A stretch of 64,000 nucleotides of DNA from a virus. Lineage: Duplodnaviria > Heunggongvirae > Uroviricota > Caudoviricetes. Below the pieces are notes generated by a model that worked only from the letters and a program-made list of their open reading frames with translations, did no database searches and was not told the DNA's origin. Where the stretch lies: IMG/VR virus record IMGVR_UViG_3300007609_001205, positions 40,834-104,833 of that record. One strand, given 5' to 3'. A program made the translations under genes and the position numbers. The number at the start of each line of letters is the position of its first letter. The stretch's first letter is position 1. Below, one piece after another: positions 1-50,709 of the stretch.

Positions 1-46
1 GATTATATATAAACTATGATAAATTCCAAACCAAGTAAGTGGTCTA

Positions 47-1639
47 GTGAATTCAATATATAAATATATGAAGAAATTAAATAGAGAAGAGATGATAGAA
101 AAGATAATAGAAATACACGGAAAAAAGTATTTATTCAATTTCTTCAAATACACATCATACAAAGAAAAAGTTCAATTAATCTGTAAAACACATGGTAAAT
201 TCAATATTTCATTAAGTAATTTAATAGGAAATAAAAGAGGTTGTCCTGAATGTGGAAGAACAAGAGGTTGGGAATCAAATAAAAAAACAACTGATGAGTT
301 TATTGAAAATTCCCAAAAAATACATAAAAATAAATACAGTTATGAGAATGTAGTATATGAGAAATGGAATATCAAAGTATCTATAACCTGTAAAATACAT
401 GGTGATTTTCTCCAAAGGCCAAATACGCATTTAAATGGAAGTGGTTGTCCACAATGTGGTAAAAGAAAAAGAAGTAACAAAAAACCAAAAAAGATAGACA
501 TTAAAAAAATAAAAGAATTGAACTTTATAAATTTAGCAAAAGCCAAACACAATAATAAATATGATTATACACTTGTAGAATACCAAAGAAGCAATGAGAA
601 GGTCAAGATAGTTTGTAAGAAGCATGGAATATTCCAACAAACTCCACACCATCATAAAAATGGAAGTGGTTGTCCACAATGTGCATATCTAAATCAATTT
701 GGACCAAGACTTAAGACATGTGATTTTATCTCTATTTCAAAAAACAAACATAATAACTATTACACGTACACAAAATCTAATTACACAGGATATAAAAACA
801 AAATAATAATAACATGTCCAATACACGGTGATTTTAAACAAATACCCAAATATCATATGAACGGTGGTGGATGTATAAAATGTAATAATGGAAATGGGAA
901 TAGAAATAGGAATATTCTAAAATACACTACAAAAGAATATATTGAAAATTGCCAAAAAATACACAAAAATTATGATTACAATTTTTGTGAGTATAAGGGG
1001 ATGAAGGAAAATGTTAAAATTATATGCAATAAACATAAAGAATTTGACATCAACGCATACCTACACATAAATGGAAGTGGGTGTCCAAAATGTTCATTGG
1101 ATATGAGGAAAAGAACAAAGGACGAATTTATACAGGAGGCAAACGAAATACATAACAATATATATAAATATCTTATAAGAGATGACTATGTATCGATATC
1201 AGATAGAATACCCATAATATGTAATGAACATGGAACATTTCAACAAAAAGTTGAAACACATCTAAAGGGATGTGGTTGTAACCTTTGCAAAACAAAAAGT
1301 AGAGGGGAGATATCAATAATTAACTTTTTAAATAAATATAATATACCACACACAAGAGAAAAAACGTTCAATAATATAGATAATACAAGACTTAGGTTTG
1401 ACTTTTGGTTACCCCACAAAAAAACATTAATAGAATATGATGGGAAACATCATTTCAAACCCATAAAATATTTTGGTGGTGAAAAAGCATTCGAAAAAAT
1501 TCAAATAAATGATGAAATTAAAAACAGGTACTGCATCGAAAATAATATAAACCTCATAAGAATTAGTTACAAAGAATATAAGAATATTAAAAATATATTA
1601 AAAAATAAATTATTGATAAATGATAAATTCAAAGCCTAA
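47..1639 (+). CDS. DUF559/Vsr-like (PD-(D/E)XK) homing-endonuclease-type protein with six ~50-aa zinc-ribbon-like repeats
   Basis: Six repeats of pattern H..KYDY...EKVKI.C..HG.F.Q.P..H.NGSGCP.C. C-terminus RFDFWLP...IEYDGKHHF matches the DUF559/Vsr endonuclease motif. The track ORF opens at GTG 47; the first ATG is at 68, directly after TATAAATA. Confidence 0.6.
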   Translation: MNSIYKYMKKLNREEMIEKIIEIHGKKYLFNFFKYTSYKEKVQLICKTHGKFNISLSNLIGNKRGCPECGRTRGWESNKKTTDEFIENSQKIHKNKYSYENVVYEKWNIKVSITCKIHGDFLQRPNTHLNGSGCPQCGKRKRSNKKPKKIDIKKIKELNFINLAKAKHNNKYDYTLVEYQRSNEKVKIVCKKHGIFQQTPHHHKNGSGCPQCAYLNQFGPRLKTCDFISISKNKHNNYYTYTKSNYTGYKNKIIITCPIHGDFKQIPKYHMNGGGCIKCNNGNGNRNRNILKYTTKEYIENCQKIHKNYDYNFCEYKGMKENVKIICNKHKEFDINAYLHINGSGCPKCSLDMRKRTKDEFIQEANEIHNNIYKYLIRDDYVSISDRIPIICNEHGTFQQKVETHLKGCGCNLCKTKSRGEISIINFLNKYNIPHTREKTFNNIDNTRLRFDFWLPHKKTLIEYDGKHHFKPIKYFGGEKAFEKIQINDEIKNRYCIENNINLIRISYKEYKNIKNILKNKLLINDKFKA

Positions 1640-2159
1640 TAATAATAAATATCACCAAGGAAATTACATTCCTATAAATAAAGAAAAAGTAATAAAACTA
1701 AACTCAGAAGGGGGAATCTACTACCGTAGTTCCCTCGAAAAAAAAAAAATGATGGTTTGGTTCGATAATAATGATAAAATAATTAGATGGTGTGCAGAGT
1801 GTAACAAAATACCATACCAACTCACACATTATGAAAAATCAGGTGATATAAACTTAAAAAGCCATACCTATTATCCCGATTTCTATTACGAATTAGAAAA
1901 GAATGACAGAACAACCTCAAAAGTTATATGTGAGGTAAAACCACACAAGGAATATGAAGATGTTATTCTATTCGAAAAGAAATTGTTCAATGTACCCCAA
2001 AATGCAACCACAAAAAAATTGAAAAATTTAGAATATCGACTTAAAATGGCACAAAAGAATTCACAGAAATGGAAAACAATGATACGTTACTGTGAGAAAA
2101 AGGGACTTAAATTCATTGTTATAACAGAACAACACCTCAAAAGCAAAAAATTCAATTAA
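1620..2159 (+). CDS. hypothetical protein
   Basis: 179-aa ORF with phage-like K/E-rich composition; its 5' end overlaps the previous gene by 20 nt, so the true start may be internal. Confidence 0.35.
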   Translation: MINSKPNNNKYHQGNYIPINKEKVIKLNSEGGIYYRSSLEKKKMMVWFDNNDKIIRWCAECNKIPYQLTHYEKSGDINLKSHTYYPDFYYELEKNDRTTSKVICEVKPHKEYEDVILFEKKLFNVPQNATTKKLKNLEYRLKMAQKNSQKWKTMIRYCEKKGLKFIVITEQHLKSKKFN

Positions 2160-3106
2160 TTTTTATCACTGAACGTATCCAATGTTTTTAGAAATTCTTT
2201 ATATGTCATATCTATACCATCTCTTAGAGAGGTTTTTGGTTCCCACCCAATTTCTTTCAATTTAGAAACATCCAATAATTTTCTAGGAGTACCATCTGGT
2301 TTGCTCTGATCAAACTCAACGTTACAATAATGACCAATAACATCCTGTATCAGATACACAAGATCTCTTATAGATATATCCTCACCTGTACCAATATTCA
2401 CAATTTCACTTCCGTTATGATGTTCAAATAAATAAACACACGCCTCTGCAAGATCATCAACATAAAGGAATTCCCTTTTTGGGTTTCCGGAACCCCAAAC
2501 AACCACATTATTATCACTTGAATTCATTGATTCGTGTACCTTCCGAATAAGGGCGGGTAATACATGCGATGCTTCAAGATCATAATTATCATTCGGTCCA
2601 TATAGATTCGTAGGCATCACCGATATGAAATTTGTACCATGTTGCTCATTATACGATTGACACATCTTTATACCGGCAATCTTAGCAATTGCATAAGAGT
2701 CATTAGTGGGTTCTAACTCACCGGTCATCAAATACTCCTCTTTTATTGGCTGTTTGGACATCTTAGGATAAATACATGATGAACCAAGGAATAACAATTT
2801 CTCCACTCCATACAAATAAGAGTGGTGTATTACATTATTCTGTATCATCAGATTCTTGTATAGAAAATCTGCTTTTTTAGAATCATTCGCATGGATACCA
2901 CCTACCTTGGCGGCTGCCATAAAAACAAACACCGGACGATGTTTTTTAAAATACATATCCACTCTACCTTGGTTTGTCATGTCCAATTCTGAACTTGTTG
3001 GGGATAGTATATTATTAAATCCCCTCGATTTTAATTGTCGTATTATAGCAGAGCCAACCATACCTCTACCACCACAGACTAATATTTTAGAATACGGTTT
3101 TATCAT
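2156..3106 (-). CDS. fcl: GDP-L-fucose synthase (GDP-4-keto-6-deoxymannose 3,5-epimerase/4-reductase)
   Basis: N-terminus [15 protein letters not shown] (Rossmann GxxGxxG), plus YxxxK and NLYGPNDN motifs typical of Fcl/WcaG; its 3' end overlaps gmd by 4 nt. Confidence 0.85.
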
Positions 3107-4149
3107 TGTGTAACTTTCAATTTAATCAAATCTGCTGATACCATTTCCCTACAAAGTTCTTCAACCGTATATTCGGGTTCCCAATTAAGTACCTCTTTGG
3201 CTTTTGTAGAATCACCAAGGAGTTCATCTACCTCTGTGGGGCGGAAGTATTTCTCATCAATTTTTATAAGAACTTTATTTGTTTTCGAATCAATACCCAC
3301 TTCATCAACTCCTTCACCTTTCCACTCAATATCAACACCAATTTCACGAAATGCCATTTCACAAAAATCCCGAACTGATATCTTCTTACCAGTTGATAAT
3401 ACATAATCTTCTGCTTTTTTTTGCTGCAGCATCAACCACATACCACGAACATAATCCTTTGCATGTCCCCAATCCCTTTCAGCATCCAAATTCCCAATAG
3501 AAAGACTGTCTTGTAGTCCAAGTTTTATTTTCGCAACTGCCTGTGTTATCTTCCGAGTAACAAATGTTTCTCCACGAACAGGACTTTCGTGATTGAACAA
3601 TATACCAGAACAGGCATAAATTCCATATGACTCTCTATAATTCACAGTTATCCAATGTGCATATAACTTTGCTACACCATAAGGACTACGTGGATAAAAG
3701 GGTGTAGTTTCCTTTTGTGGAACTTCTTGTACAAGACCAAACATCTCAGATGTTGATGCTTGGTAAAATTTGGTCTTATTTTCCAATTTCAGAATACGGA
3801 TGGCTTCAAGGATTCTCAAAGTTCCCAGTGCATCAGAGTTTGCCGTGTATTCAGGTGTTTCAAATGAAACCTTAACGTGTGATTGTGCAGCCAAATTATA
3901 AATTTCAGTTGGCTGCACTTCCTGTACGATCCGTATTATATTTGTCGAATCCGTAAGATCCCCATAATGCAAAAAGAAACGATCCTTATATTTGGGGTTT
4001 TCGTATATGTGGTCTATCCTATCTGTATTGAACGAGGAACTTCTTCTTTTTATACCATGGACAATATACCCATTGTCCAAAAGTAATTCCGCCAAATATG
4101 ACCCATCTTGTCCGGTTATACCGGTAATTAATCCAACTTTTTTAGCCAT
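3103..4149 (-). CDS. gmd: GDP-mannose 4,6-dehydratase
   Basis: [43 protein letters not shown] is the canonical GMD N-terminus; SDR catalytic region present. Confidence 0.9.
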
Positions 4150-4200
4150 TGATAAATCTTAAATTTATTTCTTATATCAAATGGAAATAGATTTGTCCAA

Positions 4201-4572
4201 TTAAATTGAATGTAATCCTTGTCCATCATTCGAACCCTGTATAGATATCAACTTAATATTGTTATCGGGGTCACCCTTCTTTTTATACAGAACATTAAAT
4301 TGTTCAGTAAGGGCACGTTTAAATATTTCTGTGAAATATGCAAATGCATTCTCAGACTTCTCTTGATTGAAATTATACCAATTCTGGTACATTTTCAACA
4401 ACCCCATCTGAAAACAATCCATTTTATCATCTTCGGTGAAGAAACGTTTGTTCATTTTTTTTATAGCCTCAGTTCCCAAAATCTCCAACATTTTTACAGA
4501 TCTTCTTGTTAATTTCCCTCTGGCTTTTGATACTACTATTTCATAATACAGTTCTTTATTATTTATGTGCAT
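4201..4572 (-). CDS. late-transcription sigma factor, T4 gp55-like
   Basis: The NNKELYYEIV, KMLEIL and NAFAYFTEIF blocks align with T4 gp55 (VNNKELLQAI ... NPHAYITQACFNAF). Size 123 aa. Confidence 0.65.
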   Translation of the reverse strand: MHINNKELYYEIVVSKARGKLTRRSVKMLEILGTEAIKKMNKRFFTEDDKMDCFQMGLLKMYQNWYNFNQEKSENAFAYFTEIFKRALTEQFNVLYKKKGDPDNNIKLISIQGSNDGQGLHSI

Positions 4573-4668
4573 AAATTAAGCATTGTTTTTTTACCACTAG
4601 TGGTTATACTAATGCTTTTGAATTATATGATAAAATTATAAATAAGTTTTAAAAATAGCCCAGAAACA

Positions 4669-4699
4669 AAAAAAAAAATCCGACCGTAGGTCGGATTTT
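4669..4699 (-). terminator. intrinsic terminator (hairpin TCCGACC-GTA-GGTCGGA)
   Basis: 7-bp GC-rich stem flanked by A10 upstream and T4 downstream on the + strand. On the minus strand it reads hairpin + T10, separating the 4719..5996 gene from the gp55-like gene. Confidence 0.6.
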
Positions 4700-4718
4700 C
4701 CAAGTATAACTATTCAGG

Positions 4719-5996
4719 TTATTTTTTAACTCTTTCTTTGTACTGAAGTTCTTTAATTCCATCAACTTCTGTCTTCAAGTTATTTTCTCTTGTTTTTAAG
4801 TTTTCAAATGCCTCTGTAAGAACTTCGGACTCACCCATAATTTCCATAGAAGACTTTATCTTAGAAATGTTGAATTGAACATCTTCCAATTTAAGAGTAA
4901 CTTCTCTTTCTTTGTCTTCTAATTTTTTCTTAACAACTACCTCTTTATCAAGTTTAGTTTCAAAGAAATAAGTGAGATCACACTGAAGTTCATTTCTAAC
5001 TTCATTAACCAACTCCAATGCTGATTCATATTTGAAGAATGAATGTCCATATCTTTCATCACATCTATACAAGAATGTATTATCTTTGTAATTGAAAACA
5101 TATGCTTCCAATGTAGGGTTAATCAGATTACTAACTCTTTTAACAACATCCAATTCAACAAATGAATCTAAATTATTAGATACTTCAAGAATGATCGGAT
5201 AAAAACTTCTATTTACGATAGGAATTACCGGTGAATTGAAAACTGACTCAAGAGTACTCTCATCAGTCATCTCATCATCATTGATATAAACTCCTTTCTT
5301 TGAAACTCCAAGCCCAATAGTCAAATATTCAGAAATTCTGAAATCTATTCTTGATTCAGAGATTTCACTGAACTGCATTGAGTTTTGAAGAGTTCTTAAT
5401 GTTTCTAATCTCTCATCATCAGAAATATGTGATTCAAGCAATGTTTTCTCAATAACGCCATCTGAAAGCAAAAACCATGAATCCTTAATAAATGCCAAGT
5501 GACCATCTTCAACTTGCTCTACAATAGTATAAACAGGCTCAGATTTACCACCACTCAAAAGATTTGATCTATCCTCCGGATTCTTTGTTAAATTATGAAC
5601 AAAAAGCTTTATTTCTGGAACCCAGTCATAGATTGACAATTCGTTTAGGATCTTAGTGATTCGATCTTGATCAGTTTCCATGTTAATTGTTTCCAATAAA
5701 ACATTTATAGGCTGTCGATACAATTCACCCTGGTTCTTTGAATTTAAAACATTGAATAATGACTTCAATTCATATACCAATTTAAATTCCTCAACATCAT
5801 TGTTAATGCCTTCAAGAAAGGATTTAACTTGGTCATCAAATGAATACTTATTAAGTTTTTCATTCAGTGATTTTATAATCCCTAATTCTGCGTGGTCATT
5901 GAAATTCATGTGTCCCTCTATAATATAAGCCACATCTGATTGGTCATATGACAAAGATTTTTTGAAGTTGAATAGTTCAAGCTTTAGATTCTTCAT
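4719..5996 (-). CDS. hypothetical protein (acidic, coiled-coil C-terminus)
   Basis: 425-aa ORF; no motif recognised. Confidence 0.5.
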   Translation of the reverse strand: MKNLKLELFNFKKSLSYDQSDVAYIIEGHMNFNDHAELGIIKSLNEKLNKYSFDDQVKSFLEGINNDVEEFKLVYELKSLFNVLNSKNQGELYRQPINVLLETINMETDQDRITKILNELSIYDWVPEIKLFVHNLTKNPEDRSNLLSGGKSEPVYTIVEQVEDGHLAFIKDSWFLLSDGVIEKTLLESHISDDERLETLRTLQNSMQFSEISESRIDFRISEYLTIGLGVSKKGVYINDDEMTDESTLESVFNSPVIPIVNRSFYPIILEVSNNLDSFVELDVVKRVSNLINPTLEAYVFNYKDNTFLYRCDERYGHSFFKYESALELVNEVRNELQCDLTYFFETKLDKEVVVKKKLEDKEREVTLKLEDVQFNISKIKSSMEIMGESEVLTEAFENLKTRENNLKTEVDGIKELQYKERVKK

Positions 5997-6053
5997 ATTC
6001 TGAAATATTTTTTTTATATAAACTATATATTAGTATTAAAAACCCACTTTTTT

Positions 6054-6800
6054 CTATTTACCGATATCACCGGAATTTGGGTTTTTCCCATTCGGCTTAC
6101 CATCTCTCAAATTTTTCAAATTATTATACCACTTGGTCCTCATTGGACTGGCTTTCAATGTATCATCCTCCTCGTTAAACGATGGGTAATATGTTTGAAC
6201 TTCAATTTGTGCATTTAACCGTATCTCATTATCACCGGTCAAACCACCCTTTTCTCTCGAAATATCAATACTATTATTATCAGGCATTTGCATATAAGCA
6301 TCAATATGCATATAGTTATATTCAAAGAACATAAATTTATATAACCAAAGTGTATCCATTATTGACTGAGAACACTTAAATGTATCAATTTCAGTTTTCA
6401 ACAATATGGATAGGTCATAAGTGGCACTTATTGGCACAGCCCTTACCTTTTTCAACTCTCTCCTCAATTCAAGTCCCTCTTCTTTAATATCCTTTAACCA
6501 CATATTGGGATTTCTGAATTCATCAGAACGAATTGTCCAATCTTTCAATGTCAGGTGACCACGTGGTATCTGGTCAGTATTAAGTTCGACATACCTATTC
6601 TCGGAAACAATATCATCTTGGAAAGAATCCAAAAGAAATCTCTCATCACCGGACAGAGAATAATAAATCGGAACATTCACCTCAACATCTTTCTTAGTGA
6701 AACGGTTTGTCCATTTTATCCTTCCTTCGAGTGTATCCAACACACAAATGGTCAGATCACGAAAAAATACATCTTGATAATTAAACTTTTTGCCAATCAT
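6054..6800 (-). CDS. hypothetical protein
   Basis: The track ORF 6054..6887 overlaps the start of the clamp-loader gene by ~100 nt. An internal Met (MIGKKF, ~6800) gives a non-overlapping 249-aa product. Confidence 0.45.
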   Translation of the reverse strand: MIGKKFNYQDVFFRDLTICVLDTLEGRIKWTNRFTKKDVEVNVPIYYSLSGDERFLLDSFQDDIVSENRYVELNTDQIPRGHLTLKDWTIRSDEFRNPNMWLKDIKEEGLELRRELKKVRAVPISATYDLSILLKTEIDTFKCSQSIMDTLWLYKFMFFEYNYMHIDAYMQMPDNNSIDISREKGGLTGDNEIRLNAQIEVQTYYPSFNEEDDTLKASPMRTKWYNNLKNLRDGKPNGKNPNSGDIGK

Positions 6801-7782
6801 ACCACTATATATTAAGAAACAAAAACCTCGTAATATGAAAGACTTACTTTTTTGGGAAAGATACAGACCAAGGAAAATGGAAGACATGGTTCTCCCTGAA
6901 AGAATAACAAATCATTTTAAGAATGGACTCAATAAAAATGTTATATTATATGGAGATTTTGGAACAGGGAAAACATCACTTGCAAGAATTCTCATTGGGA
7001 AATATAGAACAGGTACCAATTACATCGAAGTAAACTCATCACTATACACATCAATTGATTTATTGAGAAACGAGATAGAAAAATTCTGCAAATCAACAAA
7101 TATAATAGACACAGAAGATGATGTAAAATATGTTTTCCTAGATGAATATGAACGTGTATCTGCTCAATTCGAAGATGCATTCAAAGCATTTAGTGAAAAA
7201 TACAAACACGTAAGGTTTATTCTAACCACCAACCACTATAACAAAGTATCTAAAGGAATAAAATCAAGGTTTACAGGAATAAACTTCAACTTTCACGAAG
7301 ATGAAAAGAAAGACATTCAACAGAGGTTTTATAAAAAGTTAAAAAATATATGTGCCAACGAATCAATAACCATTGATAATAAGACATTGGCCGATGTTGT
7401 TAAGAAGAATTTTCCCGATATGAGGTCAATGGTACAAAGAGTCCAAGACATCAAAGATACCGGAACAGAAGAGAAGTCAATTGAAATAAATACAGAACTA
7501 CAAGAAAACCTATACAAAACCCTATTCGAAAAAGATATGACATACAATGAAATATATCATTTCGTAATGGATAATTTTGGGGATGATAACATTGATGTAA
7601 TGTTTCAAATATTATCAAGACCATTTGTTGATCATATGATTGAAAAGAAACAATCAGTAAACCAACTCTTCAAATGTAATTATATCATAACCGATACCTA
7701 CCCCAAATTGGAAACAAATGCAGACCCAATTATCGTTGCAATGACAACCATAGGAAGGTTAAGAGATATTCTCACATCTTAA
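6790..7782 (+). CDS. clamp loader ATPase subunit, T4 gp44-like (AAA+)
   Basis: The Walker A motif GDFGTGKTSLARIL, the Walker B motif VFLDEYER, and VKKNFPDMRSMVQRVQDI aligning with T4 gp44 ALVKKNFPDFRKTIGELD. Confidence 0.8.
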   Translation: MPIIPLYIKKQKPRNMKDLLFWERYRPRKMEDMVLPERITNHFKNGLNKNVILYGDFGTGKTSLARILIGKYRTGTNYIEVNSSLYTSIDLLRNEIEKFCKSTNIIDTEDDVKYVFLDEYERVSAQFEDAFKAFSEKYKHVRFILTTNHYNKVSKGIKSRFTGINFNFHEDEKKDIQQRFYKKLKNICANESITIDNKTLADVVKKNFPDMRSMVQRVQDIKDTGTEEKSIEINTELQENLYKTLFEKDMTYNEIYHFVMDNFGDDNIDVMFQILSRPFVDHMIEKKQSVNQLFKCNYIITDTYPKLETNADPIIVAMTTIGRLRDILTS

Positions 7783-7947
7783 TCATTCAAAAATGCTGCT
7801 TCCATAATTTAACCGTACACCCATTTCATAATATCATCGATATATATATCAAATCTATTGCATAATATTCATCACATACGAATGATATATCAACTAAGAT
7901 GAGGTATTCCATTTAAATAATGATGAAAATTCATAAAAAGGTACAAG

Positions 7948-8352
7948 GTGTTCCATATCAATAATATATATTATATGCCAGAGTTCGATTTTAAAGATAT
8001 GTATATAGGATACCAAGGACACCCACGGTTCCAAGTGAATACCATCATAACCGATGACATAATCCGTGTGATTATTCAAAAATACGAGATGATCATCTTC
8101 ACAAATAAAGGAGAACTCTATGGTGATCCAAATTTTGGGGCAGATCTTTTGAAATTATTATACGAAACAAGAATATCAGCAACAGCAACACGAAATGTGA
8201 TTGCTCAACAAATCTCGGAATACATACCAGAATTGAACGATATCGATTATGGGTTGGAAGTTGTATTTGAACAAGACCCGGAAAAGTTCCAAGATATAAT
8301 GATTGTGAATTTCACCATACGTGAATACGAAGTTAAAGCAATAATTGCCTAA
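7948..8352 (+). CDS. baseplate wedge protein, gp25/GPW family
   Basis: TNKGELYGDPNFGADLLKLLYE...ATRNVIAQQISEYIPELNDIDYGLEV aligns with T4 gp25 TRKGSRPFDPEFGCDLSDQLFE...VERNIESAVRNYEPRI. The track start is GTG 7948; there is an ATG at 7975. Confidence 0.7.
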   Translation: MFHINNIYYMPEFDFKDMYIGYQGHPRFQVNTIITDDIIRVIIQKYEMIIFTNKGELYGDPNFGADLLKLLYETRISATATRNVIAQQISEYIPELNDIDYGLEVVFEQDPEKFQDIMIVNFTIREYEVKAIIA

Positions 8353-11300
8353 CTCAACCTCTTAGTACCAAGTGTCGCATTCCTATATTGCTTCGATGTT
8401 AAATTAGCAAATGCCTCTAATTCCTGTATATCAAGTATCCCCTTTATCTCATAATTCTTTCTATCTCTCCAATTAAGACCATAACCATTATTAGAACTCA
8501 CCTCAACAACTATAAATGGGTCAATATTTGAATCAACCGTGAAGTTGAATGGGTCAGTGTTAGAAGATAGCCTTCTCTCACTTATTCGTTGAATTGGATG
8601 TAAATCTATCTCTTTCCATTCTGTTATATCAATCCAATTCGTAAATTGACCACCATTATCATTCACGGGTGGAATAACTGAGGCTGTTACAGATTGTGTC
8701 ATTCCATAACCAGAAAATATATAATTATACCTATTATAACTCACAACATCAGAAACATTATAAGTAGTACCCGTTTTCCATTCCGGAACATCCTCATACT
8801 TCCGAGGGTTATTCAAACGATTATCACCAATAACAGACTCATACACCTTATCAAAATAAATAACCTTTTCACCGACAGAATATGTCTTCAATGGATACCA
8901 TTCACGGTATATCTCATATGTTTTGATATCAACAACATATTCGTCCGGCAATGATTGAGTTACACCAAGTGGTTGATCTGCATAAAAATCAAGAACACAA
9001 TTATACACAGTTGATCCATTATTAACAGGCATCAAATAAGATTCATTCAATCTAAAACTGATAGGTGTCATCGATTCCCTCACATTGAATATGGTAACAT
9101 CTCTCATCTGGTGAGAAATATAAGTGTTCTGAACAAAATCTGTTCGACCGGTGATATCCAATATCTTATGTGATAATGGTATTATATTCCCCTGCAACCA
9201 ATATTTCAAACCTTGTAACTTTTTCTGAACCTCCTCAAGAGTATATGTCAGAACACTATTACCATCTCTATCAGTTATACGGTAAGTAAGGTTGAATAAA
9301 TTCGTGTCTTCATATGTATCATTTGGAAATGTACCTTTCAAAAAGTCATTATCTTCCCACCCCACAACAGTTTGGTCAAATATATCAGGTATCTCTACTT
9401 TGAACAATTTCATATAGTTTTTTGAAAGGCGATCAACATTCTTATAATATTCATACAGTTCAAGGTCATTATAACCAAAATAGTTTATGGCATTTATTAT
9501 TGACTTATATGCCCCAACATATGGGTATATAACATGTCGCATCATCAACATCTCTTTACGTTTCTTATTAAGGAATGTCCAATCAATTCCTTCTTCTTTA
9601 ATATCATACTCCTTAAAAATATAAACATCATCTGATGATATCAATTTACCCATATTGTTCAATTCCGTCTTGTATCTTATGTCTTCATTTTCGGTTTGAC
9701 CATATACGAAAAATCTCCCTATCTCTTTATCCCACACCCTTATACGCAACGACAAATAAGTAATTGAATTATCTGATGGATAGCCATTGACGATTGTTGA
9801 TTCATCTTCGAAAAAATCTATTTCTTTGAAAAATTCAACCTCTATCTCTCTTGAATAAACTGCCTTTACTTTCACCAAATAACCATTATTAACTGATATG
9901 TATTGGTTTGAAGCATTTGAAACATCATTTAAGAAAATGGCTATATGTTGCCCAACTTCAAGACCCCTATTGACAAACATGGTATTTGATTGTGGATTTA
10001 ACTTTATAAAACCCGAACGTTTTCCCGATACGGGATCAACCACGGTTGAAAATGATATTTCATTTGTAATATCTTGTGATACATCAATGGTAAAGTCAAT
10101 ATCTTCCTTCATATACAATTGTAATACTGAACGAAGTGCCCCCTCTTCTCTTGAACGATACCCGACAAAGGTTTCAATTGGTTGTGGTGTTGATGAAATA
10201 TCATCATTATCATCTACAAACCCCAATTCGTGGTCAATTCTCGGAAAAACGGTCTGTTGATAGATGGAATTTCCCACTTTGTCAATATCCCTATTAGGCT
10301 TATTGTTCAAATGAACCGTTGGCAAAGGCTTTTGACCAATATAGGCGAGTGGTCCATCAGTAGTCAGTTGTTCCCCCGAAAAATCATAAAGGAAAAATTC
10401 CGGAACATTATCCGAATACCATTTCCAATAAACACTTGCTGTTATACCGCCATTGAAATTGTATCGTGGTCTTCTCAAATAATCCCTCGTATTCAACCAG
10501 AGACCATCTGGTTGTGTATAATTAGGATGAAGAGCACCATATTGACTTTGTGTAACAGTCAATGGATTCGACACAACCACATTGGAAACCACAAAAGAAA
10601 CTTGTGGAACAACTTCAATTATCTGTGATAATGTAGGTTGCAAAAACCAAACAGAATTCCTATCCGGGTTGAAAACATTTCGTGTAGTATTATCACCAAC
10701 AGGTAATGTGAATAATTCCCTCACAACACCTGTAACAGAATTCATAACAGATATATTTGCATTACCCGGATCCTGATTGGAAATATAAACATCCCCATCA
10801 TAATAATTCAATACTTGGTATCCATATGCAGGCGGTACTGTATTATTATAAAATTGATTGCCATTGCTTGCATTTCTTTTATAAAACTTAGGTGCATCCG
10901 ATGATGCATATATAGAATCATCCACCCCTGAAAATTCAAGATAATTATTCGTTCCTGATGCAATACCAGTTGATATAACAACATTATTATCAATATAATA
11001 TAAATCCGAAGAGTCATAGAAATAAACTGCCTCTCTTACCGGGTCATAGATAACCTCATCATCTGTTACCGATGGAACAGAATACGTATTCACAACGGTT
11101 CGTGTCGAACCATCTATCCTTCTAACATCAGTTGGTGGGGAAACAACATACATATCCCCTTCAAATTCATTGAAAACAATATCATATCCCTGACCCGATA
11201 TGGTCTGCACCAATGAACCGGAATTGTATATTAGAACTGATGTATCTGTCGTAACATAAACATCCCCATTATCACGATTGAAATCAAGTGAGAATGCAGT

Positions 11301-17444: not shown

Positions 17445-18395
17445 ATGACTCAAAGTAACCATATGTCCGAAGAGGATTATCTCAAAAAATACATAAGCAA
17501 TGATGGTGGCAATAATAACCAATCACTTGAAAATATTGAAAATTACGAGAAGGAAAACACAAATACGAGCAAATCAGGATCACGTACAGAAGACCTACAA
17601 TACTTAACATTTGATATAAATCAATTACCATGTGGTAAATTTTACCCAATGGGTACAATCTTAACCGTAAGAGCAGCACAAGTAAGAGAGATTCAAGCAT
17701 ATTCAATGGTCGATGATAACAACTTTTATGATGTGGTTGAGAAGATGAATGATATGTTAGCATCATGTGTCAGATTAAAAAGACCAGATGGTTCCTTTGG
17801 AACATATTTAGAACTAAAAGACCAAGATAGATTATTCATAATTTTTCTAATAAGAGAACTCACTTTCCAAAAAGGGAACTCACTTGAAGTAAAAGAAAAG
17901 TGTTCTTGTGGAGAAGAAGTTAGTATGGAATTGAAAAGGGAAAATTTCAAATTCCACAAAATAGAACCATCACTGGAAAAGTTCTTTGATAGTTCATCAC
18001 AATCGTTTGTATTTGAGTTGAAAAATGGTACTGTTTTCAACCTAACACCACCAACAATAGGCATACAAAAAGCATTCACTGAATACATAATTGAAGAAAA
18101 TAACCAAAAAAGAAAACCAGACCTATCCTTTTTGAAAATAATACCATTTCTATTAGATGGACGTAGTTCTATAACAAACGAAGGCATCAAGAAAAAATTA
18201 CAAAAGTATCAACAACTTTCACCAAATGAATTCCAATTCTTAAATTCGGCAGTAGATAAACTTACATTCGGGATAAAAAATCTTAGCAGAGAATGCACGT
18301 GTGGTCAGGAGGTCCACACGGAAATGTCATTTCCCAACGGAGCGTCAGGTATTTTCGTTATTCATGATGCCTTTGAAAAGTTTATTAAAGAATAA
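17445..18395 (+). CDS. hypothetical protein with duplicated C-x-C-G-(E/Q)-E-V motif
   Basis: EKCSCGEEV and RECTCGQEVHTE lie ~140 aa apart, suggesting internal duplication and possible metal binding. Confidence 0.5.
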   Translation: MTQSNHMSEEDYLKKYISNDGGNNNQSLENIENYEKENTNTSKSGSRTEDLQYLTFDINQLPCGKFYPMGTILTVRAAQVREIQAYSMVDDNNFYDVVEKMNDMLASCVRLKRPDGSFGTYLELKDQDRLFIIFLIRELTFQKGNSLEVKEKCSCGEEVSMELKRENFKFHKIEPSLEKFFDSSSQSFVFELKNGTVFNLTPPTIGIQKAFTEYIIEENNQKRKPDLSFLKIIPFLLDGRSSITNEGIKKKLQKYQQLSPNEFQFLNSAVDKLTFGIKNLSRECTCGQEVHTEMSFPNGASGIFVIHDAFEKFIKE

Positions 18396-18615
18396 ACTCC
18401 TTATACAAAAACATAATAATGTGAATGAAATGGCACTTGATTGTTGGCCATTTTGGATGTTGGAAGAAAATATCTCTATAATAAATGAAATGGTTGAGGA
18501 AGAAGAAAAAGAACGAAAAAACCAAGAGGATGAACAACAACACTCAATGCCCAATTTCAACCCCGGTCAATATATGAACCAAATGAAAAATATGACAAGT
18601 GGTTTTAAGAAATAA
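18301..18615 (+). CDS. hypothetical small acidic protein (start uncertain)
   Basis: Overlaps the 3' end of the preceding gene; the internal Met at ~18431 is more plausible. Confidence 0.25.
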   Translation: MVRRSTRKCHFPTERQVFSLFMMPLKSLLKNKLLIQKHNNVNEMALDCWPFWMLEENISIINEMVEEEEKERKNQEDEQQHSMPNFNPGQYMNQMKNMTSGFKK

Positions 18616-18658: not shown

Positions 18659-20296
18659 ATGATATTATCTGAAACCATTCAAGTAAAAACCAAGGGGAAT
18701 AAGAAACTCAAACACTACAATTCACTTGGATACAATACAAGTAAAGAGTTTATAGAAGTTTATATAAAGGACTTGCCTCTATCAATATCCAATGAGGTAT
18801 TAGTAAAATGTGATTATTGTGGCACTGAACACTATAAAAAGTATGTCGATTATAATAGAGTGGCAAGTGATACTAAATACGCATGTTCCCGTAAATGTGG
18901 AACGATCAAAGCAAAAGAAACAATTGAGAATTCCCCAAAAAAAGACCATCCCCTAAAAGGTAAAAAAATAGATCCGGATAAATTAAATGAGATAATCCAA
19001 AAAAGGATAAACACCAACATTGAAAAATATGGTGTTGAACATGTTCTACAAAAAGAAGAAATAAAAGAAAAATTCAAAAAAACCAACATAAAGAAATATG
19101 GGACTGACAACTATGCAAAAACAGACGAATTCATAGAAAGGCAACGAAAAAATACAATCGACAAATATGGTGTTACACATATATCAAAATTAGAAGAAAC
19201 AAAAGAGAAAATAAGAAGAACAAATATAAAGAAATATGGTGTTCCTTCCACATTGAATATTGAACGGGCAAATGAAAACAGACTTGAAGTTTTCAAATCT
19301 GAAGAACACAGAAAGGATTATGAAATATCTAATCACAAAGATTATATAAAATACATAGGAAACAGCACATCACTGTTCATGTGTGAAAAAGGACACGAAT
19401 TTCGAATAAAATATGATAATTATAAAAGTAGATTATCGAATAATATACCTTTATGTACCACATGTTACCCCATAAACAGTTTAACATCCATAAAAGAAGA
19501 AGAACTATACAACCACATATCATCACTATACAACAAAGAAGTCATAAAATCCCACCGGGATATAACGGAATTGGATATATACATCCCAAGCCTCAATATT
19601 GGGTTTGAATTCAATGGGTTATATTGGCATTCAAATAAATTCAAAGACAAGAATTACCATCTGAATAAGACAAATTACTTTAAGAAAAAGAACATAAGAG
19701 TTATACACATATGGGAAGATGAATGGGATAATAAGAAAGAAATAATATTATCACAAACAAAAAACCTACTCAACAAAAGCAATCGAATAGGTGCAAGAAA
19801 ATGCAAAGTTATTGAAATAAATGACACATCCATAAGTAAAGGATTCTTAAATGAAAACCACATACAAGGGAATGATAGATCCAATATTAAAATAGGACTA
19901 TATTACGAAGGAAACTTAGTATCTATTATGACATTTGATAAAAGTGAAGGCAGGAAAAAAATGCCAAATGGTGAATGGAATCTGTCAAGATTCTGTAACC
20001 TTAAAAACACAACAATAATGGGTGGATTCAGTAAATTACTTAAATATTTCATAAAAACATATAGTCCCAATAGAATAATAAGTTATGCAGACCGTTCGTG
20101 GTCAGAAGGAAATGTTTATACCAAAAACGGATTCACTAAAATATCAGAAACAAGACCCGATTATAAGTATTTAGTGAACAACCAAAGAATACACAAATCA
20201 AGGTATAGAAAATCATACACAGGTATCTCCGAATCAGATCTTGACATATTAAAAATATATGACTGTGGGAAGTTGAAATTTGAAATGGTATTATAA
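18659..20296 (+). CDS. DUF559/Vsr-like homing-endonuclease-type protein with KYG repeats
   Basis: Four ~30-aa repeats (IEKYGVEHV / IKKYGTDNY / IDKYGVTHI / IKKYGVPST). The central block DIYIPSLNIGFEFNGLYWHS...IRVIHIWEDEW matches the Vsr/DUF559 fold, followed by a C-terminal domain of unknown function. Confidence 0.6.
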   Translation: MILSETIQVKTKGNKKLKHYNSLGYNTSKEFIEVYIKDLPLSISNEVLVKCDYCGTEHYKKYVDYNRVASDTKYACSRKCGTIKAKETIENSPKKDHPLKGKKIDPDKLNEIIQKRINTNIEKYGVEHVLQKEEIKEKFKKTNIKKYGTDNYAKTDEFIERQRKNTIDKYGVTHISKLEETKEKIRRTNIKKYGVPSTLNIERANENRLEVFKSEEHRKDYEISNHKDYIKYIGNSTSLFMCEKGHEFRIKYDNYKSRLSNNIPLCTTCYPINSLTSIKEEELYNHISSLYNKEVIKSHRDITELDIYIPSLNIGFEFNGLYWHSNKFKDKNYHLNKTNYFKKKNIRVIHIWEDEWDNKKEIILSQTKNLLNKSNRIGARKCKVIEINDTSISKGFLNENHIQGNDRSNIKIGLYYEGNLVSIMTFDKSEGRKKMPNGEWNLSRFCNLKNTTIMGGFSKLLKYFIKTYSPNRIISYADRSWSEGNVYTKNGFTKISETRPDYKYLVNNQRIHKSRYRKSYTGISESDLDILKIYDCGKLKFEMVL

Positions 20297-40636: not shown

Positions 40637-41071
40637 TTATACAAGGTCAACTTGTCCATCTTTTTGTTGCTGGTCATATAAATCACTAATCTGATTTGCC
40701 CTTGCGACACTCTCAATACCATAATTATTAATTATTCCCGCGAATGTTGTAAGATCAGGTTTAACCAACTTAATTTTACCCGATTTTGGATCTATCGTGA
40801 TTTTATCCAATTCAGTTTCGATAAGGATATCAACACTCTCATCGTCATCGAATGCATCTAAAAGATTCTCATTAAAAGATACCATTAATTCTTTATCCAA
40901 AATAAAGGCATAGTGGTCAGGTAATTTAGTCAATTTAACCAACTCCTTTTGTTTTACATTTCCAATAAATTGGAATCGCATGGCCATCGGAAAAGCCTTT
41001 TTTTCGAAAACTCTCATAAAAGTTTCCTTTGTAGTTTCATCTAACTCTTGAAATTTATCCATTTTATCCAT
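40637..41071 (-). CDS. hypothetical protein
   Basis: 144-aa ORF. Confidence 0.5.
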   Translation of the reverse strand: MDKMDKFQELDETTKETFMRVFEKKAFPMAMRFQFIGNVKQKELVKLTKLPDHYAFILDKELMVSFNENLLDAFDDDESVDILIETELDKITIDPKSGKIKLVKPDLTTFAGIINNYGIESVARANQISDLYDQQQKDGQVDLV

Positions 41072-44917: not shown

Positions 44918-45176
44918 ATTCAAAGAATTCAATGAGGCAAATGGTATAGAATGGTTGGGTCCAGTTGGACCGGGTTGGCCAGAAACAAAAACACCGAATA
45001 CATTAAGTGATAATGATACAAATATCAAGCAATGTGAAATTGATAATAAATTATACACATACGATGATTATCAAACCATATATCAAGAATACTTAAAATT
45101 GGGCAATGGTCCATTGAATGGATTTACATTGGATAATCTCAACACAGTAGTCCAAACATTACAAGAAGAGAATTAA
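44907..45176 (+). CDS. hypothetical protein
   Basis: 89-aa ORF. Confidence 0.35.
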   Translation: MILKFKEFNEANGIEWLGPVGPGWPETKTPNTLSDNDTNIKQCEIDNKLYTYDDYQTIYQEYLKLGNGPLNGFTLDNLNTVVQTLQEEN

Positions 45177-47496: not shown

Positions 47497-47937
47497 ATGA
47501 AAGAAAAAGAATTAGTTATTGTAGTACGTGAATTTGATAAACTGAATCTCATAGAAAATGATATGTATTCAGAAAATCCCGATTTGTATGAAAATTACAA
47601 ACTTTCTGATTTACCACTTGTAAAATATACAGAAAAACTCAAAAAAGAAAATAAGACATTGTTAGAAAATTTCAATGCCATATCTAAATCACTTGATAAT
47701 GATGAGGAATTTGTATATTATTTATCCGTAAAAAATGATCTTTTATACATTGCTGGATATGATACATTTGCAGAAGGTCGTGAAAAACTTATGGATCTTG
47801 TCAAAGAATTGAAATTGGATATTGAACTTATCGATTATAAGATTCCACTAACAAGAACTCAGAAAGAAGACCTCCGAAAGTTAATAGATGATGTATATGA
47901 GGGGAATGTAGATGCATTCTATTACGAATACTTCTAA
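47497..47937 (+). CDS. hypothetical protein
   Basis: 146 aa; TATCTTTG lies 8 nt before the ATG. Confidence 0.45.
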   Translation: MKEKELVIVVREFDKLNLIENDMYSENPDLYENYKLSDLPLVKYTEKLKKENKTLLENFNAISKSLDNDEEFVYYLSVKNDLLYIAGYDTFAEGREKLMDLVKELKLDIELIDYKIPLTRTQKEDLRKLIDDVYEGNVDAFYYEYF

Positions 47938-49370
47938 TTCAATTTAAGCCTTCTGATGTGATATCCCAATGTGTTCCATAATATGGAATAGATATCATCA
48001 AATTCATCATACCGTATCCTTACCATATTGATATAGTTATCCTCACAGTAATCGTTCTTTATCTGGTCGTTTTCTCTGAGCAAATAATATGATGTCGTGC
48101 CACCGAATAACTCTACCGGTTGGTAATGTTGGATACCATCGAATTCTATACATGTTCTCATAGAGGGGATGTAGAAATCAAATGGTAACTTTTTTTCATT
48201 TACACAATCTTCAAATTTATGTTTATATGAATATGTTATATCATACTTATTCAAAAATTTCATTATCCCCTTTTCACCTTTCGAATGATTACATTCAGGA
48301 CAACCAACACCACTCAAATGTGAATTAGGTGTTTGTTCAAAATCTCCGTGGTATGGACAAGTTATTAAAATTTTTTCATTCGATTTCTTATAAACCGACT
48401 TTTCATATTTGTATCTGAATTCATGTATAAGATTTGCTTCTGATATAAATTGGTGTGTTGTTTTTTTCAACAGCCTCATTTCTGGTCGATCACCTCTTAG
48501 ATGATATCTAGGTTTTTGTAAATATATAATATCACGAAATTTTATCTTAACAGGTGTATCTGTATCAACATATTCAACTAATGAATAATCATATCTATCC
48601 TTAAATATTTCAACAGACTTTCTTATAAATGTTTCTGTATCTATAACATTTAAACCCTCAGGCCTCAATCCTTTTAAATGATACTGTGGACATTGATTAT
48701 AAATCCTCTCACGGAATTTTATCTTAACAGGTGTTTTCATATTAACATAATCAACCATTGAATAATCATATCTATCTCCAAATATTTTAACAGACCGACT
48801 TATGAATTCACTTTTAGTCAATTTACTACTACAACTAAATTCAGGCTTTCTCCCCATTAAATGTTTAGCAGGTGTTTGTTCATAAATTATACCATCATAT
48901 ATTATCTTCACATGTTTATTCATTGATTCGTATTCAACCATTGAATAATCATATCTATCTTTAAATATTTTCACGGAATCACTTATAAATTTATCAGTAG
49001 TATACATACGTTCACATTTATAACCACACAAATGATTATTAACAATTTGTCTATATTCTACACCCTGATATATCAAAGTAATAGGCTTTGTACTACCTTT
49101 AAATTCTGATTTAGAATAATCATATTTATTATGACCCCACAACAATTTGGATTTATTTATGAAATCATCAGTATTCCTTATTCGAGATTCTTCTGGACAC
49201 TTACCATTCAAATGATACACAACTTTTTGTTTAAAAAGTAACCCTTTATATCCAATGAATACATAATCACTACTAATAACTTTATCAGGAACTGATTTAT
49301 AATCATATTTACATTTAAATATCTTATTCGATTTATTCACAAATTCTTGCTTAGTCATACTTTTCACCAC
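47934..49370 (-). CDS. DUF559/Vsr-like homing-endonuclease-type protein with degenerate zinc-ribbon repeats
   Basis: Six ~48-aa repeats (KIFKDRYDYSMVEYESMNKHVKIIYDGIIYEQTPAKHLMGRKPE); only the last keeps C..HG....GVGCPEC. C-terminus LPFDFYIPSMRTCIEFDGIQHY. Confidence 0.6.
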   Translation of the reverse strand: MVKSMTKQEFVNKSNKIFKCKYDYKSVPDKVISSDYVFIGYKGLLFKQKVVYHLNGKCPEESRIRNTDDFINKSKLLWGHNKYDYSKSEFKGSTKPITLIYQGVEYRQIVNNHLCGYKCERMYTTDKFISDSVKIFKDRYDYSMVEYESMNKHVKIIYDGIIYEQTPAKHLMGRKPEFSCSSKLTKSEFISRSVKIFGDRYDYSMVDYVNMKTPVKIKFRERIYNQCPQYHLKGLRPEGLNVIDTETFIRKSVEIFKDRYDYSLVEYVDTDTPVKIKFRDIIYLQKPRYHLRGDRPEMRLLKKTTHQFISEANLIHEFRYKYEKSVYKKSNEKILITCPYHGDFEQTPNSHLSGVGCPECNHSKGEKGIMKFLNKYDITYSYKHKFEDCVNEKKLPFDFYIPSMRTCIEFDGIQHYQPVELFGGTTSYYLLRENDQIKNDYCEDNYINMVRIRYDEFDDIYSILWNTLGYHIRRLKLN

Positions 49371-49494: not shown

Positions 49495-50709
49495 ATGGCT
49501 AAGAAAAAAAGTAGTAAAAAATTCACATTCTCGGAAGTAGGTAATCTGTTAAATGATATCACCAAAAAAGTTCCTGTTGTCATTGAAACAGAAGCAAAAG
49601 AAAAGCATTTTATTGATACTGGGGTTTATCTTTTAAATGCAGCATTAAGTGCTGATATGTTGAATGGCGGAGTACAACACGGTAAGATATTCACTGTTGC
49701 CGGTGATTCTGGAACGGGTAAAACATTTGTTGCACTATCAATTGCAAAAAATGCACAAAGAGATGGTATGGGTGTTATATATATTGACACAGAACATAGT
49801 TTGAATTATGATGATTTAGCAAATTATGGTATCGATAATGATACTGAAAAGTTCAAACTTATAAGAGGTAATAAAGTTGAAGATATTAATATCCTCCTAA
49901 CACAATTATTGGATTCACTCAAAGAACAAAAAATAAAAAATGGTTCTATCGACCCATTCCTAATTATACTAGATTCTGTTGGACAAATGAGTTCAAACAA
50001 AGAAAAAGAAGATTTAATATCTGGGAATCTTAAAGTTGATATGACAAGAGCAAAAGCATTAGCTGCTATGTTCCGTTCAATTAACACTGATCTAGGATTT
50101 TTAGAAATTCCAATGGTTGTTTGCAACCATGTTTATCTTGAACAAGGCCAAATGTATCCTTCTCAGGTCTTGAAGGGTGGAAAAGCATTGGTGTATTCAA
50201 GTTCGGTTATTGGTATGATGTCAAAAGCAAAATTGAAAGATAATAATGTCGATGATATGGACCTTGGGCAATCAGGTATTGTCGTAACGTTTAAAACTGC
50301 TAAAAACAGATTAGCAAAACCAAAGAAAATTAAATTTGAAATATCATTCATATCCGGTATGAACCCATACACAGGCTTAGATGCTTTCTGCCGACCAGAA
50401 TATTATGAACAAATCGGAATTGCAAAGGGTAAAGAAGAAGTCGACAAAAAAACGGGGGAAATAACATTCAAACCCGGTGGTCATAGATGGTATATTAGAC
50501 ATTTAGGTAAATCAGTCTATTCAAAAGACCTCTTTAAACCAAATGTTTTCACACAAGAAGTTCTTGAAACTATGGCACCGATTATAAATGATTACTTCAG
50601 ATACCGATCAGTTGATGAAATTGAAGAATCTGTCAAAGAGTTTGATGAAATACAAGATAACGGTGTAGTCGAAGGTGAAGACTTCGATGCAGGGGAATTA
50701 TTCGAATAA
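49495..50709 (+). CDS. uvsX: UvsX/RecA-family recombinase
   Basis: The Walker A motif GDSGTGKT, and LDSVGQMSSNKEKEDLISGNLKVDMTRAKALAAMFRS aligning with T4 UvsX IDSIGNMASKKETEDALNEKSVADMTRAKSLKSLFRI. Confidence 0.85.
   Translation: MAKKKSSKKFTFSEVGNLLNDITKKVPVVIETEAKEKHFIDTGVYLLNAALSADMLNGGVQHGKIFTVAGDSGTGKTFVALSIAKNAQRDGMGVIYIDTEHSLNYDDLANYGIDNDTEKFKLIRGNKVEDINILLTQLLDSLKEQKIKNGSIDPFLIILDSVGQMSSNKEKEDLISGNLKVDMTRAKALAAMFRSINTDLGFLEIPMVVCNHVYLEQGQMYPSQVLKGGKALVYSSSVIGMMSKAKLKDNNVDDMDLGQSGIVVTFKTAKNRLAKPKKIKFEISFISGMNPYTGLDAFCRPEYYEQIGIAKGKEEVDKKTGEITFKPGGHRWYIRHLGKSVYSKDLFKPNVFTQEVLETMAPIINDYFRYRSVDEIEESVKEFDEIQDNGVVEGEDFDAGELFE

Follow-up and report, generated by a model that had tools for sequence, protein, structure and literature searches.

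Three genes in a 64,000-nucleotide stretch of viral DNA are probably freestanding homing endonuclease genes of the Vsr-like (EDxHD) nuclease superfamily. The stretch, hereafter the window, covers positions 40,834 to 104,833 of the IMG/VR record IMGVR_UViG_3300007609_001205 and belongs to an uncultured, AT-rich T4-like phage. The genes are A (open reading frame (ORF) 47-1639, + strand), B (18659-20296, + strand) and C (47934-49370, - strand), and all three ORFs exist as a first-pass annotation of the window had listed them. Additional copies or fragments of A, B and C were not found elsewhere in the window. The gene content is T4-like, with a RecA-like uvsX, a gp4-type head-completion gene, and tail and structural genes. 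The GC content of the window is 33.2%; the lowest values, 26.8-29.9%, are those of genes A, B and C. A megablast search of window positions 1-8000 against deposited phage genomes gave zero matches, hence the phage has no close cultured or deposited relative. The assignment is based on domain architecture, fold, residue conservation, one precise insertion junction and site polymorphism, all observed here. These data fit genes that enter phage genomes at conserved genes or close to them, then diverge, lose activity and are replaced. A, B and C are well-resolved additions to two classes of selfish nucleases of phages and giant viruses that are very large and almost uncharacterised, the A/C class and the Hef-like class of B, each with more than 5,000 database relatives. 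Both kinds of gene have already been described, and the current understanding is not overturned.

Gene A interrupts a gp4-like head-completion gene (1620..2159, + strand), which was assigned to PHROG 218 'head closure' and has a Pfam TnsA-like N-terminal domain. The gene is 75% identical to the gp4 of L027. L-numbers denote related loci, fetched with A and with the genes flanking the three sites. In L027, gp4 is uninterrupted, is located directly after a divergent gene and has the 5' sequence tatatataaattATGATAAACTCTAAGCCAAATAATAGC... Window positions 1-34 reproduce the upstream region and the first six codons of this endonuclease-free gp4. The native gp4 upstream region with a late-promoter-like motif, TATATATAAA (1..15, + strand), matches the sequence directly upstream of gp4 in L027 and is now located 5' of A. 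It is followed by a stub ORF of 15 codons (16..63, + strand; MINSKPSKWSSEFNI and a stop codon), which represents the displaced gp4 start with its first six codons and ends 4 nt before ATG 68 of A. The MINSKP of the stub is also the N-terminus of gp4 at 1620 and of L027 gp4. An imperfect direct repeat of 19 nt is formed by the left copy ATGATAAATTCCAAACCAA (16..34, + strand) and the right copy, the regenerated gp4 5' end (1620..1638, + strand). The copies share 16 of 19 bases, and the three differences are synonymous third positions. As the 19-nt gp4 5' end is present at 16-34 and again at 1620-1638, the insert comprises 35-1619 and lies inside codon 7 of gp4. The last codons of A overlap the regenerated gp4 start. 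A is probably expressed from gp4's own promoter and start region via the stub. Translation likely starts at ATG 68, yielding 523 aa, rather than at GTG 47, which is merely the first possible start (530 aa).

The TATATATAAA motif was also present 5' of gp4 in L028-L033 and L196-L198. In seven further, more distant relatives, gp4 was uninterrupted directly behind this motif. No endonuclease gene was present upstream of gp4 in L027 and L195. The comparison of insertion sites suggested by the first-pass annotation thus provided a defined junction for A, inside gp4; it did not reveal a flanking duplication at B or C. The A junction offers a concrete target, the first codons of the head-completion gene. 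In a distant phage (L190, 3564-4561, and L191, 3549-4546), an A-type endonuclease gene is located directly 3' of a gp4 homologue with 31% identity, and gp4 may be a recurrent neighbour of the A-type family. For phage LIMEstone1, a head-completion protein gene is listed downstream of one freestanding endonuclease gene (PMC3296691).

A and C have one common architecture (32% identity over 466 aa, E 4e-53 in BLASTP) and are, judged from their sequences, true paralogues. Six units of ~58 aa of the CapR/DUF723/DUF4379 type are followed by a Vsr-like nuclease of ~115 aa. In A, the zinc-ribbon units span 80..1291 on the + strand (nt 80-256, 287-460, 512-685, 713-886, 923-1096 and 1118-1291). Each of the six carries a CxxH...CxxC signature, more precisely C-x2-H-x16-17-C-x2-C, with first ligands at aa 46, 115, 190, 257, 327 and 392. 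The six units with full zinc ligands in each had been recognised before; the earlier length of ~50 aa has to be revised to ~58 aa, and the units recur every 65-75 aa in A and every ~60 aa in C. Family scans used Pfam with curated cut-offs and PHROGs; an NCBIfam scan gave no meaningful matches. On A, DUF723 (46.8 bits, cut-off 20.9) and DUF4379 (43.1 bits, cut-off 24.5), a treble-clef zinc finger, both passed. C stayed below these cut-offs (19.5 and 14.4 bits), and its database copy P0001 has a precomputed PF05265 match. The C units align with the A units column by column.

C is transcribed divergently from uvsX and encodes 478 aa from GTG 49370 or 474 aa from ATG 49358. The latter is likely the start; P0001 also has 474 aa. 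Its first five units (48462..49349, - strand; aa 8-303) are cysteine-less, CapR-like and zinc-free. Only the last unit (48282..48455, - strand), which adjoins the nuclease, retained CxxH...CxxC at aa 338-360 (C338, H341, C357 and C360). The observation that C carries the repeat of A with the cysteines gone from five of six copies was therefore correct: the units are homologous. Tandem Repeats Finder detected no DNA-level arrays in the repeat regions. A gapless repeat finder revealed 72-76% nucleotide identity among units 3-5 of C with a period of 177-183 nt. These units are an internal duplication, and arrays grow this way, a process already known from related genes (PMC10448857). The view that the repeat arrays vary was supported by this duplication and by the differing unit numbers.

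PHROGs 559, 681 and 9084, to which A and C were assigned, carry the annotation endonuclease or homing endonuclease. C has over 5,500 matching proteins in the database, and matches to A came from 1,058 deposited phage genomes. Proteins of the A/C type are also encoded on the giant-virus metagenome-assembled contigs L140 and L150. Predicted-structure matches (BFVD) came from Klosneuvirus, Mimivirus R892, Marseillevirus and Orpheovirus. Based on these contigs and matches, the A/C family spans phages and giant viruses of eukaryotes.

The excerpted text of PMC12350094 (Nucleic Acids Research 2025, 'Presence of group II introns in phage genomes') describes a large unrecognised outgroup of EDxHD/Vsr homing endonucleases. 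According to this excerpt, the class has several ~60-aa CapR/DUF4379/DUF723-related domains, then a ~100-aa C-terminal domain distantly related to EDxHD/Vsr, and thousands of mostly unannotated homologues. A and C fit the description as far as the excerpt gives it. The examples presented there have three to five domains and are located in introns of group I or group II within jumbo-phage virion RNA polymerase genes, whereas A and C have six, are freestanding and belong to a T4-like phage. In the C clade most units are zinc-free, a type of unit that the excerpt does not mention. The CapR/DUF723/DUF4379 repeats are known as DNA-binding modules of T5orf172 homing endonucleases in the Vibrio phage ICP1 (PMC10448857). 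A and C share with these enzymes the zinc-ribbon module family, the variable copy number and recombination between repeats (PMC10448857). The nuclease differs: it is T5orf172, GIY-YIG-like, in the ICP1 enzymes and Vsr-like in A and C.

The nuclease domain of A (1292..1639, + strand; aa 416-530) contains the motifs SRGE, FDF, IEYDGKHH, FGG and NDEIK. That of C (47934..48281, - strand) has E366, D398, E409, D411, H415, D435 and K438. The C-terminal motif common to both is FDF(W/Y)(L/I)P...IE(Y/F)DG..H. Conservation was determined on 122 sequences, comprising A, C and the homologues of C, which were taken as the best 120. The nuclease residues were conserved at 87-100%: SxGE366, D398 (100%), E409 (99%), D411, H415 (98%), D435 (98%) and K438 (100%). 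A and C each have all of them. The AlphaFold2 model of C, built on 80 sequences, reached a mean pLDDT of 93.4. In a Foldseek search of this model against the PDB, the first match was 3r3p, the catalytic domain of I-Bth0305I (probability 1.00, target-normalised TM 0.73). The Escherichia coli Vsr structures 1cw0 and 1vsr followed at ranks 5 and 7. For the nuclease domain of A, the same fold is inferred from the model of its paralogue C. Searches against PDB sequences gave zero matches for A as a single sequence and zero matches at E <= 10 for the A/C-type profile (A2, built on C). The result for the profile is consistent with the 'outgroup' status given in the excerpt of PMC12350094.

I-Bth0305I is the prototype of EDxHD homing endonucleases, with the active site E170, D196, N208, H213 and D222 (PMC3239194). 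The conserved A/C residues map onto these active-site positions. The likeness comprises the Vsr-like fold, as the top structural match for C and the top sequence-profile match for B, the conserved E, D, N/D, H and D positions, and the order of an N-terminal modular DNA-binding region and a C-terminal nuclease. Differences are located in the context and in the binding region: I-Bth0305I is intron-encoded in recA and has NUMOD/HTH-type DNA-binding motifs, no zinc-ribbon arrays. Within the nuclease, A and C have ExDGxxH instead of ExNGxxWH and ~11 extra residues, including FGG, between the histidine and the last aspartate. B has an added GNAT domain. A Vsr-type nuclease, as proposed in the first-pass annotation, was supported by the fold matches of C to 3r3p and Vsr and by the profile match of the B core to 3r3p. 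The DUF559 membership proposed alongside was not: Pfam DUF559 (PF04480) gave no match at E <= 0.1 for A, B or C. DUF2726 reached 18.6 bits on A, below its cut-off of 24.7. Distant homologues are named 'DUF559 domain-containing' or 'very-short-patch-repair endonuclease' in some sources. Loss of catalytic residues, which had been named as a sign of DNA-binding proteins rather than nucleases, was not seen; the conserved residues are intact in A, B and C, the positions assigned in B being E280, D306, N319 and H324.

The cysteine-less units of C had been regarded as repeats in a state of decay. A profile of the unit was built and the four ligand columns were typed in 760 units of the 120 homologues. 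The nuclease-proximal unit was CHCC in 120 of 120. Cysteine-less units were present in 103 of the 120, down to ~30-40% identity, and in fixed patterns. With Z for a zinc unit and o for a cysteine-less unit, these were oooZooZ (48 homologues), oooZ (19), ooooZ (16), ZZZooZ (10) and oooooZ (8). The last of these is maintained across C's own clade at 54-60% identity. The cysteine-less units have a signature of their own at fixed columns: a tryptophan replaces an early histidine, tyrosine or phenylalanine the first cysteine, and glycine the histidine ligand. In the AlphaFold2 model, all six units of C have the same pattern of helix, hairpin and short helix, a zinc-unit-like fold at pLDDT >90 (block values 85-98). 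Together with the conserved patterns, the model indicates that the cysteine-less units represent a conserved form of this fold that is stable and does not depend on zinc. In the loci fetched with A and the site-flanking genes, the ligands were kept in 230 of ~250 units, so that the zinc-free subtype characterises the C-like branch.

Under the decay explanation, C would be a degenerating copy of an A-like gene with its zinc ribbons caught midway. The loss of ligands in five of six units is what such a copy would show, and inactivated relatives do exist, such as the copy in L001 without a nuclease motif. Decay does not account for conserved cysteine-less patterns with a conserved replacement signature in 103 of 120 homologues, for a six-unit oooooZ pattern held in the clade of C, or for confidently modelled units with the helix-hairpin-helix pattern of zinc units, and the nuclease residues of C are intact. 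It is extremely unlikely and was rejected. A conserved zinc-free subtype is preferred, and the distribution of ligands suggests a rule by which a zinc site is required in the nuclease-adjacent module alone. This rule is a simple structural hypothesis for how the arrays work. Mixed zinc and zinc-free modules of ~60 aa may form a modular DNA-recognition code, each unit reading a few base pairs, with zinc being obligatory only in the nuclease-proximal unit.

Gene B encodes a Hef-like protein of 545 aa (phrog_3339 'homing endonuclease', E 3.5e-106) with a different architecture. An N-terminal zinc ribbon (18791..18913, + strand) has C51, C54, C76 and C80, which are invariant or nearly so in the B-family alignment A1, and beta strands in the model. 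Four helical TN(I/L)xKYG repeats of 23 aa follow (18971..19303, + strand; DUF7487, Pfam 63.2 bits), with a period of 69 nt, KYG at aa 123, 146, 169 and 192, and helix repeats in the model. A second zinc ribbon (19343..19474, + strand; C242, H246, C266 and C269) resembles the second half of the A/C unit. The EDxHD/Vsr-like nuclease core (19487..19768, + strand) has S277, E280, D306, E317, N319 and H324, all invariant or nearly so in A1. A Mom-like GNAT-fold domain (19781..20293, + strand; aa 375-545) forms the C-terminus. The distinct KYG repeat had been noticed before, with a length of ~30 aa in place of the 23 aa found in the four copies.

The nuclease-related motif of B, LDIYIPSLNIGFEFNGLYWHS, is located mid-protein at aa 305-325 of 545 and is followed by an extra domain of 170 aa. 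The earlier statement that all three proteins end in the FDF...DG..H motif applies to A and C and not to B. BLASTP found no significant similarity of B to A. Similarity to C was marginal (E 0.002) and confined to C's last zinc unit and nuclease core. As a single sequence, B had zero matches to PDB sequences. The B-family profile matched 3r3p marginally (E 0.024), with D306, N319 and H324 on D196, N208 and H213 of I-Bth0305I. The Foldseek list for the B model was dominated by the GNAT domain rather than by the nuclease. Of the three supposed paralogues, the relationship thus holds for A and C; B is set apart by its Hef-like architecture, DUF7487 repeats and Mom-like GNAT domain.

In deposited phages, homologues that match B over almost its whole length bear the annotation 'Hef-like homing endonuclease', and jumbo phages have several copies of the B-type gene per genome. 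Through these annotations B was likened to Hef and Hef-like freestanding endonucleases of T4-related, Campylobacter and jumbo phages, which are freestanding and located beside conserved phage genes, as B is. Among Hef-type enzymes, only Hef of phage U5 has been studied experimentally to our knowledge (Sandegren et al. 2005). Phage Hef-type enzymes were placed in the Vsr-like family by Taylor et al. (2011; PMC3239194).

The GNAT domain is the best-conserved part of B and has many invariant residues. The top PDB match of B in Foldseek was Mom of phage Mu (8bv8, E 9e-7), followed by many acetyltransferases. B reached 22.2 bits (E 1.2e-4) with Pfam Mom PF25680, below the cut-off of 27.1; its homologues P0124 (30.9 bits) and P0180 (29.5 bits) passed. 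Mom is a glycyl-tRNA-dependent modifier of adenine in double-stranded DNA, with R111, S124, D149 and R151 as essential residues (PMC13219725). In a weak hhalign alignment (E 0.018), Mom R111, S124, D149 and Y159 were placed on R444, S458, D478 and Y487 of B, which are invariant or nearly so. In the same weak alignment, Mom R151 is not conserved. A profile of the C-terminal domain of B did not reach Mom among PDB sequences, and B has no obvious counterpart of the regulator Com. The GNAT fold, Mom as best PDB match and the homologues above the Pfam cut-off connect B to Mom, and Mom-restriction endonuclease (REase) fusions in jumbo phages are a precedent for the combination with an REase fold (PMC7824862).

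These fusions were read as restriction-modification-like modules (Iyer et al. 2021, PMC7824862). B could likewise be such a module in a single chain: the Mom-like domain would modify adenines in the phage's own DNA and the nuclease would attack unmodified host or competitor DNA. This function is rather unlikely for B, although the same proposal has been made for the jumbo-phage fusions (PMC7824862), the GNAT domain is so well conserved, and Mom residues fall on (nearly) invariant residues of B in the weak alignment. Presence, absence and inversion of the gene at one locus among close relatives and several copies per jumbo-phage genome are how a selfish element behaves. Long, specific targets are suggested by the DNA-binding repeat arrays, which are long and variable. 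A restriction-modification-like function and homing are compatible with each other. A link between them can be imagined in which Hef-like elements are self-immunising homing endonucleases, a speculative and improbable option. The GNAT domain would chemically mark adenines within the site that the element itself recognises or close to it, possibly through an aminoacyl-tRNA-dependent reaction as in Mom. The carrier genome would be protected without a sequence change, and unmarked relatives would be cut. We know of no Mom-nuclease fusion protein for which a modification activity is known. The conserved Mom-like domain in the Hef-like class raises the question whether some homing endonucleases also modify DNA.

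The sites of B and C are polymorphic among relatives. At the B site, a copy with 58-60% identity is present at the same place in L034, L035 and L091 (3 of 80 relatives), and an inverted copy is present in L070, L072 and L077. Outside L034, L035 and L091, copies with 36-50% identity are reversed or lie beyond the neighbouring gene, and the site is empty in many relatives (e.g., L099 and L081). In about 80 related contigs (L034-L113), the surroundings of the homologue of window 17445-18395 form a hot spot. B-type and A/C-type genes occur there in varied positions and orientations, sometimes both (e.g., L091 and L113).

The conserved neighbour of C is uvsX (49495..50709, + strand), a RecA-like recombinase gene identified from a RecA_N match (Pfam) of the called gene. 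L001 and L002, the closest relatives by UvsX (78%), have a homologue of 285 aa with 34% identity at the same place and on the same strand (L001 3110-3967, - strand, and the matching place in L002). Two of the three repeats in this copy are cysteine-less, and the nuclease motif has been destroyed, with IDFRTRQNY for IEFDGIQHY and NNKRT for NDxIK. The copy is either inactivated or domesticated as a DNA-binding protein. Full-length copies with 37-39% identity occupy the C site in L006 and L018, and the site is empty in L003-L005 (UvsX 75%). The earlier proposal of mobile freestanding endonucleases was strengthened by this presence/absence and orientation polymorphism and by the duplication-flanked insertion of A in gp4.

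Homing is supported by the 19-nt gp4 duplication that flanks A, the polymorphic sites and the intact catalytic residues. In the proposed mechanism, the repeat array would bind an extended DNA target within or beside a conserved gene of the phage; this would be gp4 for A and the uvsX neighbourhood for C. During mixed infection, the nuclease would cut genomes without the endonuclease gene. Repair of the break by recombination with an endonuclease-bearing genome would then transfer the gene, along with markers flanking it, to the genome that was cut. That the repeats bind DNA, that the nuclease cleaves, where the targets are and that homing takes place is what we infer from the genes and their sites.

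Several points weigh against this interpretation. We know of no member of the A/C class for which cleavage, a target site or a homing event has been demonstrated. A scan of IMG/VR and JGI metagenomes for a closer endonuclease-free gp4 allele gave just the relative L027. As this nearest empty allele is only 75% identical in protein sequence, neither a co-conversion tract nor the exact target can be defined. A search for flanking duplications at the B and C sites was negative. The left flanks at both sites differ between relatives, so that no simple insertion junctions can be drawn, and the uvsX upstream regions of relatives gave no informative alignment. The role of a Mom-like domain within a homing endonuclease is unexplained.

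The genes could also be derivatives of homing endonucleases that are no longer mobile. They would be kept as weapons against co-infecting phages, satellites or host DNA, comparable to Odn of ICP1, or as DNA-binding regulators, comparable to the satellite-encoded repressor CapR. Co-opted DNA-binding modules and nucleases are known from phage-satellite conflicts (PMC10448857), and the L001/L002 copy at the uvsX site, with intact repeats and a destroyed nuclease motif, could be such a domesticated protein. For A, B and C this origin is nevertheless quite improbable. Their catalytic residues are intact. Same-site copies are just 34-60% identical and differ in orientation, which points to repeated independent invasion and not to vertical retention. 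An invading element would typically be placed as A is, within gp4 and with the start of that gene duplicated. Mobile homing endonucleases remain the preferred interpretation.

Further genes of the window were noted alongside. Immediately 3' of gp4, two sugar-nucleotide genes are located on the - strand (2156-4149). ORF 2156-3106 matches a nucleotide-sugar epimerase PHROG, and both genes are 71-78% identical to their L027 counterparts. They look like auxiliary metabolic genes, probably for the modification of cell-surface or virion glycans. A tail-fibre/tail-spike-like protein of 750 aa (45173-47425, - strand) has many glycine-rich repeats and, over a short stretch, the collagen-like sequence GATGATGSAG. 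Good conservation in L001/L002 is confined to its N-terminal half (66% identity over residues 1-361), and identity over residues 388-708 is 44% in L001. Two very long ORFs are present on the - strand, 8349-14138 (1929 aa) and 21470-25720 (1416 aa). The latter is conserved in relatives (<=82% identity), and its position relative to the 17445 gene shifts between genomes. ORF 18301-18615 overlaps the 3' end of ORF 17445-18395 (window 18301-18395), and both frames appear ~80% conserved in relatives. A second conserved frame at this 3' end was rejected as a by-product of the very high nucleotide conservation there. The true start of ORF 18301-18615 is probably an internal ATG.

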